Origin: Escherichia coli
GTDB lineage: Bacteria; Pseudomonadota; Gammaproteobacteria; Enterobacterales; Enterobacteriaceae
Direction: 5' to 3' (one strand)
Length of the DNA: 6,055 nt
Assembly: GCF_048403405.1 (NCBI RefSeq)
Contig: NZ_CP183132.1
This document shows positions 1,259 through 6,055 of the stretch, in pieces. Within the stretch, counting starts at the first letter, position 1; each line of letters begins with the position of its first letter. The position numbers and the translations under genes are program-made. Below the pieces are notes generated by a model, which was not told where the DNA came from, did no database searches, and saw only the letters and a list, made by a program, of their open reading frames with translations.

Positions 1259-1615
1259 ATGGGGGTAATGATACCGATGAAACGCGAGAGGATGCTCACG
1301 ATACGGGTTACTGATGATGAACATGCCCGGTTACTGGAACGCTGTGAGGGTAAACAACTGGCGGTATGGATGCGGCGGGTCTGCCTGGGTGAGCCGGTTG
1401 CCCGTTCCGGGAAGCTGCCGACACTGGCACCGCCGTTACTGCGTCAGCTGGCCGCCATCGGGAATAACCTTAACCAGACAGCGAGGAAGGTGAACAGCGG
1501 GCAGTGGTCTTCCGGTGACCGGGTTCAGGTGGTGGCCGCACTGATGGCCATCGGGGATGAGCTGCGCCGGCTGCGTCTGGCGGTCAGGGAACAGGGGGCG
1601 CGGGATGATAGTTAA
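1259..1615 (+). CDS. mbeC: MbeC/MobC-family relaxosome accessory protein (ribbon-helix-helix)
   Basis: MKRERMLTIRVTDDEHARLLERCEG forms an RHH-type N-terminus, and AAIGNNLNQTARKVN is the MobC-family motif. The first ~100 nt of this gene survive beside rop in pBR322. The start is ambiguous among the in-frame ATGs at 1259, 1268 and 1277. ATG 1259 has a G-run (1244-1250) 8 nt upstream. The 3' end overlaps the mbeA start by 11 nt. Confidence 0.85.
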   Translation: MGVMIPMKRERMLTIRVTDDEHARLLERCEGKQLAVWMRRVCLGEPVARSGKLPTLAPPLLRQLAAIGNNLNQTARKVNSGQWSSGDRVQVVAALMAIGDELRRLRLAVREQGARDDS

Positions 1616-3170
1616 GTTTCATGCCAGGGGAAAAGGTGGTGGCAGTGGTCCGGTTGATTACCTGCTGGGAAGGGAGCGTAACCGGGAAGGGGCAACGGTG
1701 CTTCAGGGGAATCCGGAAGAGGTCCGGGAACTCATCGATGCCACGCCATTTGCGAAGAAATACACGTCAGGTGTTCTGTCGTTCGCGGAGAAGGAGCTGC
1801 CGCCTGGAGGGCGTGAAAAAGTGATGGCGAGCTTTGAGCGTGTACTGATGCCCGGTCTCGAGAAAAATCAGTACAGCATCCTGTGGGTGGAGCACCAGGA
1901 CAAGGGACGGCTTGAGCTGAATTTTGTCATTCCGAACATGGAGCTACAGACCGGAAAACGCCTCCAGCCGTACTACGACCGGGCAGACAGGCCGAGAATT
2001 GATGCCTGGCAGACGCTGGTGAATCACCATTACGGTCTGCATGACCCCAACGCCCCGGAGAACCGCCGGACGCTGACCCTTCCTGATAACCTGCCGGAAA
2101 CGAAACAGGCGCTTGCTGAGGGCGTCACACGCGGGATAGACGCGCTTTACCATGCCGGAGAGATAAAAGGCCGTCAGGATGTGATTCAGGCGCTCACAGA
2201 GGCGGGGCTTGAAGTGGTCAGGGTGACGCGAAGCAGTATCAGCATTGCAGACCCGAACGGCGGGAGGAATATCAGACTGAAAGGAGCGTTTTATGAGCAA
2301 TCTTTTACAGACGGGCGCGGAGTTCGAGAAAAAGCTGAAAGAGAGAGCCGAATCTACAGAGAAAATGCTGAACGACGAGTTCAGGAAGCTCGAAGAATCT
2401 GTAAACAGGGAACTGACCTCAAACGAATCTTTAATCAGGAACGCTATCAACGACCATACAACAGCCCTGAAAGAACTGCTGGAGAGGTATCAGAAAACGA
2501 CCGTCGATACGATGGACGCGCACTGGAAAACCGTACTGAAAATGAGCGTGAAACGCTGGCTGTGGCTGATTATCGTCTCAGTACTGATGTTTGCCACGAC
2601 CGGGAGTCTGCTGTGGTACCAGGGCATGAAGATAAACGCGAATATGAATATTCTCCGCGAGCAGAAAGAGAGTCTGGAGAAGCTGAACGCGAAGACATGG
2701 GGCGTGCGTTATCACGAGGACAGCAACGGACGTTTTCTGGTGTTGCCGAAGGGGATGAAAGCCGAAACGAACTGGACGAAGGACAACGGCAAACTGAACG
2801 CAGTGAGACTGGTGCAGGAGTGACAGAGCATGACGGAGCTGGAAAGACATTTGCTGAACGCATTAGAGCAACTGCAACAGGACTATATGCAGCGGCTGAA
2901 CGAATGGGAGAACGCCTTCGTGGAATTGCAGAAAATGTTTTCGCTTACGCAACGGGACAACGCGATGCTGAACGGGCGAGTCATGCAGTTGAGTCAGCAG
3001 GTGCAGCACTTGAGCGAGCGGACAGAACGCTTGAGCCAGTTATACAGCGAGAACAGGAGATAAGGGATGAACGGCTGATGCAGGAACGCGAACATGAGTT
3101 ATCTCTGGAGCGGGAGCGTCAGCCGGAAATCCAGGAGCGGACACTGGATGGCCCTTCGCTGGGATGGTGA
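1605..3170 (+). CDS. mbeA: MbeA/MobA relaxase, MOB-HEN family (521 aa from ATG 1605)
   Basis: MIVKFHARGKGGGSGPVDYLLG carries the catalytic Tyr19 (codon 1659-1661). LWVEHQDKGRLELNFVIPN gives His97, Glu104 and Asn106, the HEN motif described for ColE1 MbeA. The ORF-track start at 1557 adds 16 residues that overlap mbeC. ATG 1605 matches the ColE1 N-terminus. Confidence 0.95.
   Translation: MIVKFHARGKGGGSGPVDYLLGRERNREGATVLQGNPEEVRELIDATPFAKKYTSGVLSFAEKELPPGGREKVMASFERVLMPGLEKNQYSILWVEHQDKGRLELNFVIPNMELQTGKRLQPYYDRADRPRIDAWQTLVNHHYGLHDPNAPENRRTLTLPDNLPETKQALAEGVTRGIDALYHAGEIKGRQDVIQALTEAGLEVVRVTRSSISIADPNGGRNIRLKGAFYEQSFTDGRGVREKAERESRIYRENAERRVQEARRICKQGTDLKRIFNQERYQRPYNSPERTAGEVSENDRRYDGRALENRTENERETLAVADYRLSTDVCHDRESAVVPGHEDKREYEYSPRAERESGEAEREDMGRALSRGQQRTFSGVAEGDESRNELDEGQRQTERSETGAGVTEHDGAGKTFAERIRATATGLYAAAERMGERLRGIAENVFAYATGQRDAERASHAVESAGAALERADRTLEPVIQREQEIRDERLMQEREHELSLERERQPEIQERTLDGPSLGW
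2293..2823 (+). CDS. mbeB: MbeB/MobB mobilisation protein, nested in the +1 frame of mbeA (176 aa, one TM segment)
   Basis: AGGAG (2282-2286) lies 6 nt before the ATG. The N-terminal half looks coiled-coil, followed by the hydrophobic segment RWLWLIIVSVLMFATTGSLLWY. Position and size match the known ColE1 mbeB nested inside mbeA. Confidence 0.8.
   Translation: MSNLLQTGAEFEKKLKERAESTEKMLNDEFRKLEESVNRELTSNESLIRNAINDHTTALKELLERYQKTTVDTMDAHWKTVLKMSVKRWLWLIIVSVLMFATTGSLLWYQGMKINANMNILREQKESLEKLNAKTWGVRYHEDSNGRFLVLPKGMKAETNWTKDNGKLNAVRLVQE
2830..3063 (+). CDS. mbeD: MbeD/MobD small mobilisation protein, nested in mbeA in the same frame as mbeB (77 aa)
   Basis: CAGGAG (2815-2820) lies 9 nt before the ATG, which starts 7 nt after the mbeB stop. 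The sequence is heptad-like and helical (LLNALEQLQQDYMQRLNEWENAFVELQKMF). The position matches ColE1 mbeD, which I recall being linked to entry exclusion. Confidence 0.7.
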   Translation: MTELERHLLNALEQLQQDYMQRLNEWENAFVELQKMFSLTQRDNAMLNGRVMQLSQQVQHLSERTERLSQLYSENRR

Positions 3171-3231
3171 AACCATGAAAAATGACGTGTTCAGTGGATT
3201 AAGGCGGGCTAATGTGGCCTGTAGCATCTGG

Positions 3232-3258
3232 TTGCATAGGTATTCATGCGGTTAAAAT
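3232..3258 (+). promoter_or_regulatory. Pcer-like promoter: -35 TTGCAT (3232-3237), 15-bp spacer, -10 TAAAAT (3253-3258)
   Basis: The hexamers are near-consensus with an unusually short 15-bp spacer. This matches the published description of ColE1 Pcer as I remember it. The promoter overlaps the candidate ARG box. Confidence 0.6.
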
Positions 3259-3264
3259 TTATCA

Positions 3265-3345
3265 GGTGCGATCGCGGCAGTTTTTCGGGTGGTTTGTTGC
3301 CATTTTTACCTGTCTGCTGCCGTGATCGCACCGAACGCGTTTTGG
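3265..3345 (+). ncRNA. rcd: Rcd-like small RNA (dimer-induced cell-division checkpoint RNA), ends approximate
   Basis: It lies downstream of the Pcer-like promoter. A long hairpin pairs ggtgcgatcgcggcag (3265-3280) with ctgccgtgatcgcacc (3317-3332): 16 bp with one G-U. It is followed by the palindrome aacgcgtt and a T-run (3340-3343). Confidence 0.5.
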
Positions 3346-3346
3346 C

Positions 3347-3375
3347 GGTGCGTACAATGCGACGTTATGGTAAAT
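3347..3375 (+). other. Xer core: XerC arm GGTGCGTACAA (3347-3357), central region TGCGACG (3358-3364, 7 bp), XerD arm TTATGGTAAAT (3365-3375)
   Basis: Both arms are identical to the ColE1 cer arms (GGTGCGTACAA-TTAAGGGA-TTATGGTAAAT). The central region differs in both sequence and length. Confidence 0.85.
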
Positions 3376-3465
3376 GGAGCGGATTTTCAGGAAGGAGTGA
3401 TACTAACAACTCGAACACTGTGCAAATAATGATTTTTTTAAAATATCGGTAACGATAATAAATTA

Positions 3466-3494
3466 TTTCGTTTTACGCCGGTAATAAATATAAT
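3466..3494 (+). promoter_or_regulatory. Candidate promoter for the cargo operon: perfect -10 TATAAT (3489-3494) with only a weak -35 (TTTCGT 3466-3471 at 17 bp)
   Basis: This is the only consensus -10 in the AT-rich leader upstream of the first cargo gene. TTTACG (3472-3477) is a better -35 but lies only 11 bp away. The call is weak because AT-rich DNA produces such hexamers by chance. Confidence 0.3.
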
Positions 3495-3543
3495 GTAGTT
3501 TCAGTATATAAAAAAATATATGAGGTGTCTTGTGGGAGCTTTC

Positions 3544-4596
3544 ATGAATCTTCAACAACGTATAAATAAACTACCACAATTATCATCCAGTTTTTCATTT
3601 GGAAAAGATATTGATAATATTCATTCATTTATCTTTAACGAAACTTCTAAAGATAAAATTGAAGATTTACTAAGAAAATGGGTGTCAGGCAATCAGCCCT
3701 GTGTATTTGGTAAATTGGCAAGCAAGAAAATTAAAGGGCTTGATTTCCATTTATCTATTGTAAATAGCCCCCAACTATATAATGATGATGGTCATTTGTT
3801 TGATTTTTTGCGTAATGAAAGAGTTCGTTTTAAAGAACGCGCAAGAAGAGGAGAGGTCAGTGCGCATCTCATTTATTTTATTCATCCACAACTTGCCTTT
3901 GCTCGTCCATCAGAAGAGTTAGTGGACATACAAAAATATATTTGTTCGCTGCATATGCCAGAGTGCTATCCAATAAAAGAGGATGTTATTTATACTGAAA
4001 GCGTACCATTTCAGGATAAAGATGGGCTAAAAATATATAAGGCTGGTGTTAATGTTTTTTACTCTTCTGCTCATAGAACAAGAAATCATGATAGAAGAAT
4101 ACCAGGGGGAATACTTATTTCTGTAAATGCCCCGGGGCATTTTATGAGGCTGGCGATAGAAAAAGGTTTCTATAAAGATCAAGAACAAGCGTTAGCGGAT
4201 ATTCGTAACATGACTATTCAGTCTGTTGGTAAGGGTGGGTATTCACATCCGGAAGGGATTTCTACAACATGGCATTCAGAATCTAATTTGGATCGTTTTG
4301 GATGCCCAGTGCACACCGGTAATAGTTCTTATTACAGCGGTTTTTATCATACTGATGTATTAATTCCAGGAGAATTAACTAAGGATGAAAGATTGCTCCA
4401 TGAAATAGAAAATAGTGATCCAATGATCTTCAACTGGAATGTATTGTTTTATGTTTCATTAGAAGAGTTTCCTATAGATGATCCTTATTATGGAGAGTTT
4501 ATTGGTATTCCTGTAGATGATGCATCTATGTTTTTTAACTCCTTTCAACCAAGGAAATTTGAAAACAAACCCCTTTATGAGAAAGAGGATGATTAA
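3544..4596 (+). CDS. Uncharacterised soluble 350-aa protein (cargo gene A), possibly a metal- or heme-dependent enzyme
   Basis: A long ORF in AT-rich DNA. GGGAG (3534-3538) lies 5 nt before ATG 3544. Alternative in-frame starts are ATG 3520 and GTG 3532. There is no signal peptide or TM segment. The protein is His-rich and has four Cys. Motifs include NQPCVFGK (Cys53), C134-x2-H-x3-C141 (CSLHMPEC), H177-RTRN-H182-DRR and GCPVH. I cannot confidently recognise a family. Confidence 0.85.
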   Translation: MNLQQRINKLPQLSSSFSFGKDIDNIHSFIFNETSKDKIEDLLRKWVSGNQPCVFGKLASKKIKGLDFHLSIVNSPQLYNDDGHLFDFLRNERVRFKERARRGEVSAHLIYFIHPQLAFARPSEELVDIQKYICSLHMPECYPIKEDVIYTESVPFQDKDGLKIYKAGVNVFYSSAHRTRNHDRRIPGGILISVNAPGHFMRLAIEKGFYKDQEQALADIRNMTIQSVGKGGYSHPEGISTTWHSESNLDRFGCPVHTGNSSYYSGFYHTDVLIPGELTKDERLLHEIENSDPMIFNWNVLFYVSLEEFPIDDPYYGEFIGIPVDDASMFFNSFQPRKFENKPLYEKEDD

Positions 4597-4597
4597 T

Positions 4598-5464
4598 ATG
4601 ATTAAAGGAATGCTTTTTGCTTTTTTAGCAGCGTTCTCATGGGGGGCAGCTATCGTAATGAGCAAAAAAGGAGTTGAAGAACTAGATGCCGGAGGGGTGT
4701 TTTTCTGGCAGATTTGTAGTGCAGTAATACTATCTTGGATAGTTCTTTTTATAAAAAGAAAAAAACTCCCATTAAACTCAAAAGCGATACTTGCTTATGC
4801 GACAGGCGTTTTTGAACCATTCTTAGCGTATACTTTTACACTCTACGGACTTTATTTTATTTCAGCAGGAAGCGCATCAATTATTTTTTCACTTGAATCA
4901 GTGTTTATATTGGTGTTGTCTGTTCTTATTTGCTCAGTTAAAATTAATTCCCCGCAATATTTTATATTGTTCCTTATAGGTGCAATTGTTGGCAGTATTT
5001 TGGTAGCCTTGCCAGACATCAGTAATGGATCGAATAATATTGTTGGATATTGTCTTGTTGTTGCCGGTGTGTTATCGGCAGCATTTTATGTTGTTATATC
5101 GTCTCGCCTTATTAAATCGTTTGAGCCTATCACATTATTGAGCGGACAGTTGACATTCTCCCTTATACTGTCATCGCTCTTTATTTTTATATCTAAATCA
5201 TCAATTTATCTTCCGTTGGAATCCGTGATTATTGTTTTTTCATCTGGAATATTACAATATTTTTTAGCTTTTTGTTTTTACTTGAACTCCTTGCGTTGGC
5301 TCCCAGTTCATTTGGCAGGGATAATGTTGTACTTTATTCCGCTAGTTGCATTATTTTTGTCATGGTTGTTTTTGGATGAACAATTCACATTCTTACAGGG
5401 GGTAGGATTTATTGTAACTGTGCTAAGTGTATATTTTCTTAACAGAAAATACTCAGAGGAGTAA
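4598..5464 (+). CDS. DMT-superfamily (EamA-like) permease, 288 aa, about 10 TM segments (cargo gene B)
   Basis: ATG 4598 follows the upstream TAA (4594-4596) by 1 nt, with AAGAGGA (4582-4588) 9 nt upstream. The N-terminus GMLFAFLAAFSWGAAIVMSKKG is typical of EamA domains. I count ten hydrophobic segments arranged as two five-TM halves. The ORF-track start at 4517 adds 27 residues overlapping gene A and is unlikely. Confidence 0.9.
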   Translation: MIKGMLFAFLAAFSWGAAIVMSKKGVEELDAGGVFFWQICSAVILSWIVLFIKRKKLPLNSKAILAYATGVFEPFLAYTFTLYGLYFISAGSASIIFSLESVFILVLSVLICSVKINSPQYFILFLIGAIVGSILVALPDISNGSNNIVGYCLVVAGVLSAAFYVVISSRLIKSFEPITLLSGQLTFSLILSSLFIFISKSSIYLPLESVIIVFSSGILQYFLAFCFYLNSLRWLPVHLAGIMLYFIPLVALFLSWLFLDEQFTFLQGVGFIVTVLSVYFLNRKYSEE

Positions 5465-5631
5465 CATTCTGTTCAGGATTGCCCCCCGGCCTCCATCGAT
5501 ACCGTGCCAAATGCACGTAAAAAACGGGAGCGTTTCTGGTGTCGGAATGTAACCAAGGGGGTCAGAGGCGCGCTAAAACGCTCTCAGGGGAGTCAAATAG
5601 AGACGTTTGTAACAAAAAGATCAAAGGATCC

Positions 5632-6055
5632 TCTTGAGATCCTTTTTTTCTGCGCGTAATCTGCTGCCTGTAAACGAAAAAACCGCCTTGCAGGGCGGTT
5701 TGATCGAAGGTTAAGTCAGCTTGCAGACTGCTTAACCAGGTAACTGTCTTATGCGAGACGAGTCACCAAAATTGTTCTTCTAGTGTAGCCGCACTCCGGC
5801 AGCCACTTCAAGTACTCTCTAAATATCTCGCACATGACTTTTACCAATGGCTGCTGCCAGTGGCGCTTTGTGGTGTCTTTTCCGGGTTGGACCCAAGAGA
5901 ACAGTTACCGGAGAAGGCGCAGCAGTCGGGCTGAACGGGGGGTTCCTGCATACAGCCCAGCCCGGAGCGAACTGCCTAAGTCGCCCCGAGATACCAGAAG
6001 ACGTGAGCTATGAGAAAGCGCCACGTGTCCCGTAAGGGAGAAAGGCGGAAAAGGT
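5632..6055. repeat. Terminal redundancy: an exact second copy of 1-424 (RNAII promoter, RNAI, 5' part of RNAII) caused by linearising a circle
   Basis: A base-by-base comparison of 5632-6055 with 1-424 shows identity. The offset of 5631 also maps ORF 216-404 onto 5847-6035. Confidence 0.95.

Follow-up and report, generated by a model that had tools for sequence, protein, structure and literature searches.

A protein encoded on small plasmids of Escherichia coli is probably a sister of the YqcI/YcgG heme enzymes and is paired with an EamA transporter

What does a small mobilisable plasmid gain from a gene whose product is called "hypothetical protein" in every record? We addressed this question for a 6,055-nucleotide stretch of E. 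coli contig NZ_CP183132.1 (assembly GCF_048403405.1), hereafter the window. The gene in question, here named gene X, lies at positions 3544-4596 and is followed by a gene for a transporter of the EamA/drug-metabolite transporter (DMT) type. The original prediction, made from the letters of the window, had described its product as a His/Cys-rich orphan with a possible YqcI/YcgG-like N-terminal domain. Our analysis indicates that X is very probably a remote homologue of the YqcI/YcgG fold. Moreover, we favour a make-and-export explanation, in which X would be a thiolate-heme N-oxygenase whose product is exported by the partner transporter; the nature of the substrate is less certain than this core.

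3544-4596, plus strand: gene X, encoding a soluble protein of 350 amino acids (aa), WP_001053268.1 (open reading frame, RefSeq annotation, family, fold and profile-profile comparison)
3534-3538, plus strand: Shine-Dalgarno-like GGGAG, 5 nt before the ATG at 3544 (read from the sequence)

Gene X starts with the ATG at 3544-3546 and ends with the stop codon TAA at 4594-4596, and the RefSeq product, annotated as "hypothetical protein", is the same 350-aa sequence. An alternative in-frame ATG at 3520 would give a protein of 358 aa, but the start at 3544 was preferred because of the placement of GGGAG and because the homologues start at the equivalent position. The protein contains 14 His and four Cys residues (53, 134, 141 and 254), with a pI of 5.9 and a grand average of hydropathy (GRAVY) of -0.50. 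Its longest hydrophobic run comprises at most five residues, and it is without a membrane-like segment. From the GRAVY value and the absence of hydrophobic runs of more than five residues we conclude that X is soluble, as had been predicted together with the reading frame and the four cysteines. The motifs picked out in the original prediction were all present: NQPCVFGK at aa 50-57 with the Cys53 codon at 3700-3702, CSLHMPEC at aa 134-141 (3943-3966), AHRTRNHDRRIPGGILISVNAPGHF at aa 176-200 (4069-4143), YSHPEG at aa 233-238, GCPVHTG at aa 253-259 and GFYHTD at aa 266-271.

When X was searched against Pfam, NCBIfam, PADLOC and the sequences of the PDB, no match was found. The best PDB-sequence profile match, porphobilinogen synthase, had an E-value of 0.26, which is expected by chance, and was rejected. 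X is however not the orphan it had been taken for. We found 96 homologues at E≤1e-3 in an indexed search, most of which span nearly the full query, and 412 representative clusters at E≤1e-3 in an exhaustive profile search. Homologues are present in Gammaproteobacteria (Algicola with 53% and Pseudomonas with 35% identity), Alphaproteobacteria (Rhodopseudomonas, Aureimonas and Ciceribacter), Actinoplanes and many soil metagenomes. In total, the family comprises at least 400 clusters at 50% identity from Proteobacteria, Actinobacteria, and soil and marine metagenomes. The relatives are 345-430 aa long, and none of the homologues found carries a Pfam assignment. Two alignments were used: A1, with 59 close members, and A2, a more distant branch of 72 members with 20-26% identity to X. 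Pfam searches with all 59 close and 72 distant members and with the family consensus sequences gave nothing that reached threshold, and neither the two family profiles nor the distant member P0140 found anything among the PDB sequences.

Conservation in A1 runs over the whole length of the protein, including the last 120 residues. Invariant in A1 are D22, W46, P52, C53, R93, E140, Y150, P155, A176, H177, H182, D183, R184, R185, P187, G189, N195, G198, S227, G229, G231, G232, W243, Y264, Y268, D271, V272, L273 and Y303, whereas A2 keeps W46, C53, F55, F172, R185, P187, N195, Y264, T270 and D271. R185, P187 and N195 are invariant in both branches. Counted over 58 close (A1) and 71 distant (A2) relatives, Cys53 is present in all 129 (58/58 and 71/71), His269 in 56 and 64 and C254 in 39 and 47, respectively. 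Only within the close family are His177 and His182 without variation; in A2, H177 is replaced by Asp and H244 by hydrophobic residues, while Cys53 stays.

These counts bear on the idea that X is a His/Cys metal-binding protein, with CSLHMPEC, YSHPEG and GCPVHTG as structural or catalytic metal sites. The 14 His and four Cys residues, several of which are close to each other in the sequence, would fit such a role. However, among the close relatives C134 is kept in 28/58, H137 in 5/58, C141 in 6/58, H235 in 22/58 and H257 in 5/58. The clusters proposed in the original prediction, C134/H137/C141 and YSHPEG, are thus not conserved, and since these positions lack the constraint expected of metal ligands we rejected this explanation, which we regard as highly improbable.

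We then compared the family with YqcI/YcgG (PF08892, IPR014988), the thiolate-ligated heme guanidine N-oxygenases that include AglA, ChmN, GntA, DcsA, Mhr24 and GrbE. The PF08892 model did not match X even at E≤1, so that its gathering threshold of 27 bits was not reached; none of the 59 close relatives matched at E≤10, and the family consensus sequences also failed the threshold. Among the distant relatives, 6/72 gave matches, all below threshold, with a best E-value of 0.015, and PF08892 was the sole Pfam family that these relatives matched repeatedly. In the one match whose coordinates were looked at, residues 60-127 of P0140 match profile positions 8-70, a stretch that holds NQPCVFGR. When a word-indexed database was searched with a profile at E≤10, no PF08892 protein came up, as such a distance is beyond the prefilter of this search.

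Profile-profile comparison gave a clearer result. Additional file 1 of PMC2922099, which holds a text alignment, supplied eleven genuine PF08892 sequences, including DcsA; as extracted from this trimmed published alignment they are 234-249 aa long, and all of them score with PF08892 (best E 7e-79). With hhalign, A1 aligned to this set with P=4.7e-4 over 127 columns, covering aa 50-196 of X. For A2 the P-value was 9.4e-6 (probability 83%) and for the merged superfamily 7.4e-6 (probability 84%), whereas reversed-template controls gave P=0.28-0.89 with scores of 10-16. Adding 60 more members to the PF08892 profile did not change the result. In the global mode of hhalign the alignment was meaningless and was discarded.

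The alignment places Cys53 (QPCVFGKLASKK) on the FPC cysteine (FPCVFSRNAFRK) of the PF08892 proteins, VFYSS-AHRTRNHDRRIPGGILISVNA of X on LFINMSSPAHQVR-RSRNLGRHFALVINP, and AHRTRNHDRR...ISVN on PAHxxRxSR...VINP. The residues around the cysteine, (F/Q)PC-x-F-(G/S)-(R/K), are retained, and so is the Arg-rich loop: R178, R180, R184 and R185 of X align with the invariant R157/R160 of PF08892 (trimmed DcsA numbering). The two motifs that the original prediction had named for YqcI/YcgG, PCxF(G/A)K near the N-terminus and G-x-N-V-F...AH..R...RR followed by a hydrophobic strand, do align with genuine members of that family. The Cys53 motif is the counterpart of the FPC motif, in which the cysteine is Cys44 in AglA and Cys47 in ChmN. 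In the greedy mode, the alignment extends with low confidence to W243...C254-P255, matched to EW...CPF, and ends near aa 258. The resulting elements of X are the following.

3691-3714, plus strand: NQPCVFGK motif with the Cys53 codon at 3700-3702, the predicted axial heme thiolate (invariance and hhalign to the FPC cysteine)
4069-4143, plus strand: AHRTRNHDRRIPGGILISVNAPGHF, an Arg/His-rich loop and beta-strand (aligns in hhalign with PAHxxRxSR...(hydrophobic strand)QPR of YqcI/YcgG)
4270-4308, plus strand: W243-H244 ... C254-P255, possible counterpart of the EW...CPF element (greedy hhalign, low confidence)
4318-4593, plus strand: family-specific C-terminal extension, about aa 259-350 (conservation; folded with the core in the model; greedy alignment ends at about aa 258)

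In the YqcI/YcgG proteins, the EW...CPF element closes the canonical domain, which in X would correspond to about aa 25-258. The original prediction had let an additional domain begin at about residue 225. An extra C-terminal part does exist and is specific to the family, but it is about 90 aa long (aa ~259-350), with its start set at about aa 259 because W243...C254-P255 appears to match EW...CPF, at low confidence. It contains the conserved motif Y264-S-x-x-Y268-H-T-D271-V-L-I-P (nt 4333-4368) and Y303. Nor does it behave as an optional add-on: it is conserved across the family, and the AlphaFold2 model of X, built on A1 (predicted local distance difference test, pLDDT, 92.7; predicted template modelling score, pTM, 0.92), folds as one unit. 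The model has the alpha/beta/alpha "sandwich" of the AglA type, in which a central beta-sheet is covered by three helices on one side and by two on the other. AglA, a YqcI/YcgG enzyme, was the only structural neighbour of this model to reach significance; Foldseek also ranked AglA first, but weakly, and the identity between X and AglA is 7-12%.

The predicted YqcI/YcgG-like domain is therefore borne out as a resemblance over the N-terminal ~255 residues, by hhalign and by AglA as structural neighbour, but not as membership in PF08892: direct checks against Pfam and the PDB sequences gave no match, and the link appeared in the profile-profile comparison (P=4.7e-4 to 7.4e-6). X is best described as a sister family, new and unannotated, in the YqcI/YcgG superfamily. 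We did not file it under the Pfam family PF08892 because it fails the threshold of the hidden Markov model and because its length and architecture differ. X proteins have 350-370 aa compared to about 240-270 aa for the single-domain YqcI/YcgG proteins. Beyond the conserved ~90-aa C-terminal extension with its YHTD motif, they have one more helix at the N-terminus, in which an Asp is invariant, and many further polar residues that do not vary. Furthermore, X has QPC where YqcI/YcgG has FPC, and the cysteine of the CPF element is not invariant in the X family. The genomic context also differs, since X is typically found in a two-gene cassette with EamA, with or without MarR, whereas YqcI/YcgG genes are found in non-ribosomal peptide synthetase, phosphonate or nucleoside antibiotic clusters.

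A natural fusion connects the two families. In the 622-aa protein P0098, an X domain at the N-terminus (profile E 2e-130) is joined to a canonical PF08892 domain at the C-terminus (E 2.6e-47), and the open reading frame at 2512-4398 of locus L145 encodes P0098 with six extra N-terminal residues (628 aa). The fusion is also placed at 2530-4398 of locus L178. Both Cys motifs are intact in the fusion (YQPCLFGRL and EFPCIGAKY...RCPF), so that the X and PF08892 domains are separate, paralogous modules which act together in one lineage or more. As they coexist in one protein, they are not redundant. The fusion operon continues with a 347-aa unknown protein, a MatE efflux pump in place of EamA, an OprB porin and a MOSC-domain protein.

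What would such a protein do? AglA is an alpha/beta/alpha sandwich in which the heme has the face with three helices on one side and the sheet on the other; Cys44 is the axial heme ligand and activity is lost on its mutation, the propionates are anchored by R166, K196 and R200, and the substrate pocket takes its shape from L2, a mobile loop at the C-terminus (PMC12866846). ChmN made in E. coli binds heme, which is lost in C47A, and, when supplied with ferredoxin, ferredoxin reductase and NADPH, it N-hydroxylates free L-arginine (PMC10849742). DcsA binds heme as well, and Mhr24 and GrbE are proposed arginine hydroxylases. The known chemistry of YqcI/YcgG is thus guanidine N-hydroxylation by a Cys-ligated heme and not N-N bond formation (PMC12866846, PMC10849742), which the original prediction had ascribed to the family on the assumption that KtzT belongs to it. 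KtzT forms a dimer of the PaiB type, in which the heme is ligated by His (PMC13274692), and X does not show such a PaiB-like fold, dimeric and with the His-ligated heme at the interface of the dimer. The piperazate synthases KtzT, PipS, LnzB and SbPZS resemble X in so far as they are unconventional heme enzymes, as predicted for X, that act on N-functionalised amino acids. The Cys-thiolate axial ligand predicted for X is also used by the cytochromes P450 and by the oxygenase domain of nitric oxide synthase, which in addition N-hydroxylates the guanidine of arginine.

The fold relationship, the motif correspondence, the invariant cysteine, the gene coupling and the neighbourhood conserved across phyla are directly supported. 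We propose that X, as an alpha/beta/alpha sandwich, would hold heme b via the thiolate of the invariant Cys53 (QPCVFGK); heme binding through this residue is likely. By analogy with all characterised relatives, AglA, ChmN, GntA and DcsA (the last by genetics), X would then draw its electrons from a general reductase system of the host, with ferredoxin or flavodoxin, use the heme to activate O2 and oxygenate a nitrogen of a small amine or guanidine substrate. We give N-oxygenase chemistry an even chance. The AHRTRNHDRRIPGGILISVNAPGHF region is, by alignment, a candidate site for the heme propionates and the substrate. The loop at aa 176-189 and the C-terminal extension (~259-350) with its YHTD motif might form the substrate pocket, replacing loop L2 of AglA.

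The same fold could also work without heme. Cys53 would then be a nucleophile or an acyl or thioester anchor, or part of a non-heme metal site with H182, D183, H269 and D271. A thiocarboxylate-anchor role was indeed proposed for the conserved YqcI/YcgG cysteine in 2010 (PMC2922099), but this cysteine was later shown to be the heme ligand in AglA and ChmN (PMC12866846, PMC10849742). Polar residues that are invariant in the X family but missing from canonical members are numerous (D22, E140, Y150, H177, H182-D183, H244, Y264 and Y268-H-T-D271), and the 7-12% identity to AglA leaves room for a change of cofactor. On the other hand, the (F/Q)PC-x-F-(G/S)-(R/K) flanks and the Arg-rich loop are retained, and the replacement of H177 and H244, but not of Cys53, in the distant branch suggests that the cysteine and not the His cluster is the core of the site. 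We therefore consider a non-heme function improbable and keep to the thiolate-heme enzyme.

The second part of the proposal concerns the gene downstream of X.

4598-5464, plus strand: EamA/DMT transporter, 288 aa, WP_001335763.1 (PF00892 E=6.8e-44, 149.9 bits compared to a cut-off of 28.2, two EamA repeats)
4584-4589, plus strand: AGAGGA, Shine-Dalgarno sequence for the transporter, inside the last codons of X and 8 nt before the ATG at 4598

RefSeq names the product of 4598-5464 "DMT family transporter". With one base between the stop codon of X (4594-4596) and the ATG of the transporter (4598), the two genes are apparently co-transcribed and translationally coupled. As a two-repeat EamA protein, the transporter is like the E. 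coli DMT exporters EamA/YdeD, RhtA and YddG, but it stays far under the equivalog thresholds of TIGR00950 (58.5 versus 230 bits), a carboxylate/amino acid/amine transporter model that it matches weakly, and of the YddG model (22.6 versus 300 bits). We propose that it exports the product of X, export being somewhat more probable than import. The pair on the plasmid would then be a self-contained make-and-export cassette that acts on a common metabolite.

To see how general this pairing is, neighbours were counted over 47 diverse loci, 41 of them from a metagenome scan. EamA adjoins X in 32 loci, usually directly downstream on the same strand, and mostly overlapping X or at most 15 nt away; most loci that lack EamA are contigs ending at the X gene. 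The X-EamA pairing is ancient: EamA adjoins X in Pseudomonas, where it lies upstream, in Algicola and Steroidobacteraceae, in Rhodopseudomonas, where it is divergent and MarR is present, and in an E. coli variant with 75% identity. In the literature searched, a pairing of EamA with a YqcI/YcgG-like enzyme was not found described. The E. coli variant, a second enterobacterial allele, lies at 1-8295 of locus L091 (a 43.5-kb contig), where EamA overlaps X by 8 nt. Beside this cassette we found toxin-antitoxin pairs of the PIN/PhdYeFM and Fic/PhdYeFM kinds, and another EamA gene whose partner is a GFO_IDH_MocA oxidoreductase.

The recurrent neighbours of X at other loci point to arginine, agmatine or a polyamine as the metabolite on which X would act. 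Genes of the arginase family (PF00491) were found in 4 of the 47 loci, pyruvoyl arginine decarboxylase (PF01862) in 3, homospermidine-synthase-like saccharopine dehydrogenase in 4 and GNAT acetyltransferase in 4. The homospermidine-synthase-like enzyme is encoded in the same operon as X (L142, L155, L163 and L173), and the arginine decarboxylase, together with a lactonase-like beta-propeller, divergently from X (L151, L153 and L165), all in soil metagenomes. The arginase gene, also in soil metagenomes, lies between X and EamA (L139, L141, L144 and L146). DcsB, the hydroxyarginase of D-cycloserine biosynthesis, is an arginase homologue. An arginase homologue as the neighbour of a heme protein of the YqcI/YcgG type is reminiscent of this pathway with DcsA and its hydroxyarginase, which, going by the title of Kumagai 2012 (via PMC8976061), needs a heme protein and a hydroxyarginase. 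In Actinoplanes sp. (L094 6444-14044), nine same-strand genes encode DUF3291, X, cupin, a MetRS paralogue, DAO, DUF4178, SIS, EamA and cupin. This cluster is of the "paralogous MetRS" peptide-synthesis type that was predicted in PMC2922099 to build oxygenated peptides. Taken together, a substrate of the arginine or polyamine type is possible, and we suggest it tentatively.

The neighbourhoods bear equally on the main rival, a role in detoxification or resistance. X would then oxidise a toxic amine or guanidine compound that enters the cell (for example an antimetabolite, a plant or microbial toxin or a biocide) and so inactivate or tag it; EamA would pump out the compound or the product, and in the chromosomal versions MarR would sense it. 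MarR genes were present in 16/47 loci, mostly divergent and upstream, and a divergent MarR with an efflux-type transporter is the classic layout of inducible efflux or detoxification. Carried by mobilisable plasmids, the cassette has spread among isolates from clinics and farms with ≥99% identity, as resistance traits do. The MOSC-domain gene of the fusion locus fits as well, as MOSC enzymes reduce N-hydroxylated compounds. However, all characterised YqcI/YcgG enzymes are biosynthetic, and the arginine decarboxylase, arginase, homospermidine-synthase-like and MetRS-paralogue neighbours look anabolic. In addition, no known resistance determinant is similar, and NCBIfam, which includes the NCBI resistance models, gave nothing. 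We regard detoxification as unlikely and continue to prefer make-and-export.

Several observations weigh against an N-oxygenase with product export. No close member meets any Pfam or NCBIfam threshold, so the homology rests on profile-profile and structure comparison, and for the close family alone the hhalign probability was 32%. It is by alignment to DcsA-like proteins only that Cys53 would be equated with Cys44 of AglA, and the loop arginines with its propionate ligands R166/K196/R200. Of the X relatives, only about two thirds have the CPF cysteine, whereas C-P is invariant in PF08892. Arginine and polyamine genes are neighbours in a minority of loci, 3-4 each of the 47, and the plasmid cassette itself is without such a partner gene; the direction of transport cannot be read from sequence. 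A ferredoxin or ferredoxin reductase gene next to X was seen in no locus. As ChmN worked with a generic ferredoxin/ferredoxin-reductase pair, a dedicated redox partner may not be needed. Finally, the superfamily is not bound to a single role. In two of the three loci of the distant A2 branch, an operon in a mobile island encodes Peptidase_C14 (caspase-like), an unknown protein of ~340 aa, CHAT and the X-like protein, without a transporter (L096 5070-8290 and 9949-11442; L181 1404-6245). NACHT, integrase, HNH and toxin-antitoxin genes lie around them, and the surroundings resemble an island for conflict or defence; no PADLOC model exists for this operon.

How did the cassette come to lie in the window? 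The window represents one circular ColE1-type mobilisable plasmid of 5631 bp that was read slightly more than once. Identical open reading frames are present at 203-382 and 5834-6013 in the list made for the window, and RNAI (RF00106) occurs twice on the minus strand, at 43-143 and 5674-5774, 5631 bases apart, from which it follows that 1-424 and 5632-6055 are the same DNA. In a nucleotide search, 3300-5600 was 100% identical to pJJ1886_3 (5631 bp) of the E. coli ST131 strain JJ1886 and to many other E. coli and Salmonella records. A protein-level search of plasmids (tblastn) found gene X also on small Klebsiella and Shigella plasmids, and tblastn of a distant family member at E≤10 found the same enterobacterial plasmids only. 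The backbone, consisting of MobC, relaxase, MbeB/MbeD, Rop and RNAI, has a G+C content of 52-61%. The MbeB-like and MbeD-like genes (2293-2823 and 2830-3063) are nested in the relaxase open reading frame (1557-3170) in other reading frames, which is typical of ColE1-type mob regions.

3347-3375, plus strand: cer-like XerC/XerD site (GGTGCGTACAA-tgcgacg-TTATGGTAAAT), left edge of the low-GC cargo (read from the sequence)

X and the EamA/DMT transporter are the two genes of a block at about 3400-5500 with a G+C content of 29-39%. The drop from ~52% to 29-39% starts just past the site at 3347-3375, which we take to be similar to the cer site of ColE1, and the low-GC cargo may have been captured beside this multimer-resolution site. 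An inverted repeat of 16 nt with 94% complementarity (3265-3280 / 3317-3332) lies just upstream of it. Promoter-like matches near the cassette numbered 9 compared to 8.8 expected in shuffled sequence, and no promoter is claimed.

Among 5426 complete E. coli genomes, 118 carry the cassette, in all cases on plasmids and at ≥99% identity, and it was also found in many human gut metagenome contigs. The 100%-identical cassette is present on plasmids of ~5.0-11.3 kb, some with two copies; examples are NZ_CP070129.1 (4992 bp), CP088798.1 (7066 bp), OM135997.1 (7641 bp) and NZ_CP127313.1 (11304 bp, in two places). It has therefore moved between several small replicons or was kept through their rearrangements. 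In the literature searched, pJJ1886_3-type plasmids are treated as cryptic and the accession WP_001053268.1 was not found mentioned.

For a family that is without a Pfam or NCBIfam model and "hypothetical" everywhere, the link to thiolate-heme N-oxygenases gives a concrete prediction. This enzyme class is young, with few characterised members and AglA as the single solved structure, and the link extends it to a second architecture that consists of the core and a C-terminal module. If the prediction is true, X defines a new thiolate-heme N-oxygenase family with its own substrate-binding module. The fusion with YqcI/YcgG and the arginase, arginine-decarboxylase and homospermidine-synthase-like neighbours are leads to its substrate. 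The host plasmid is common, being present in about 2% of complete E. coli genomes, and if the cassette makes and exports a modified metabolite of the arginine or polyamine type, the plasmid would have a phenotype relevant to gut or urinary-tract ecology. The plasmid circulates in pandemic E. coli ST131, Salmonella, Klebsiella and Shigella. As a speculation to which we assign a small chance, it might be a factory of two genes in which a primary metabolite (arginine, agmatine or a polyamine) is converted to an N-hydroxylated compound and secreted. Compounds of this kind, such as N-hydroxyarginines or hydroxyguanidines, can serve as antimetabolites, as inhibitors of arginase or as precursors of nitric oxide or hydroxyurea. 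If so, the plasmid would be the small-molecule counterpart of a colicin plasmid, serving microbial competition or host interaction.

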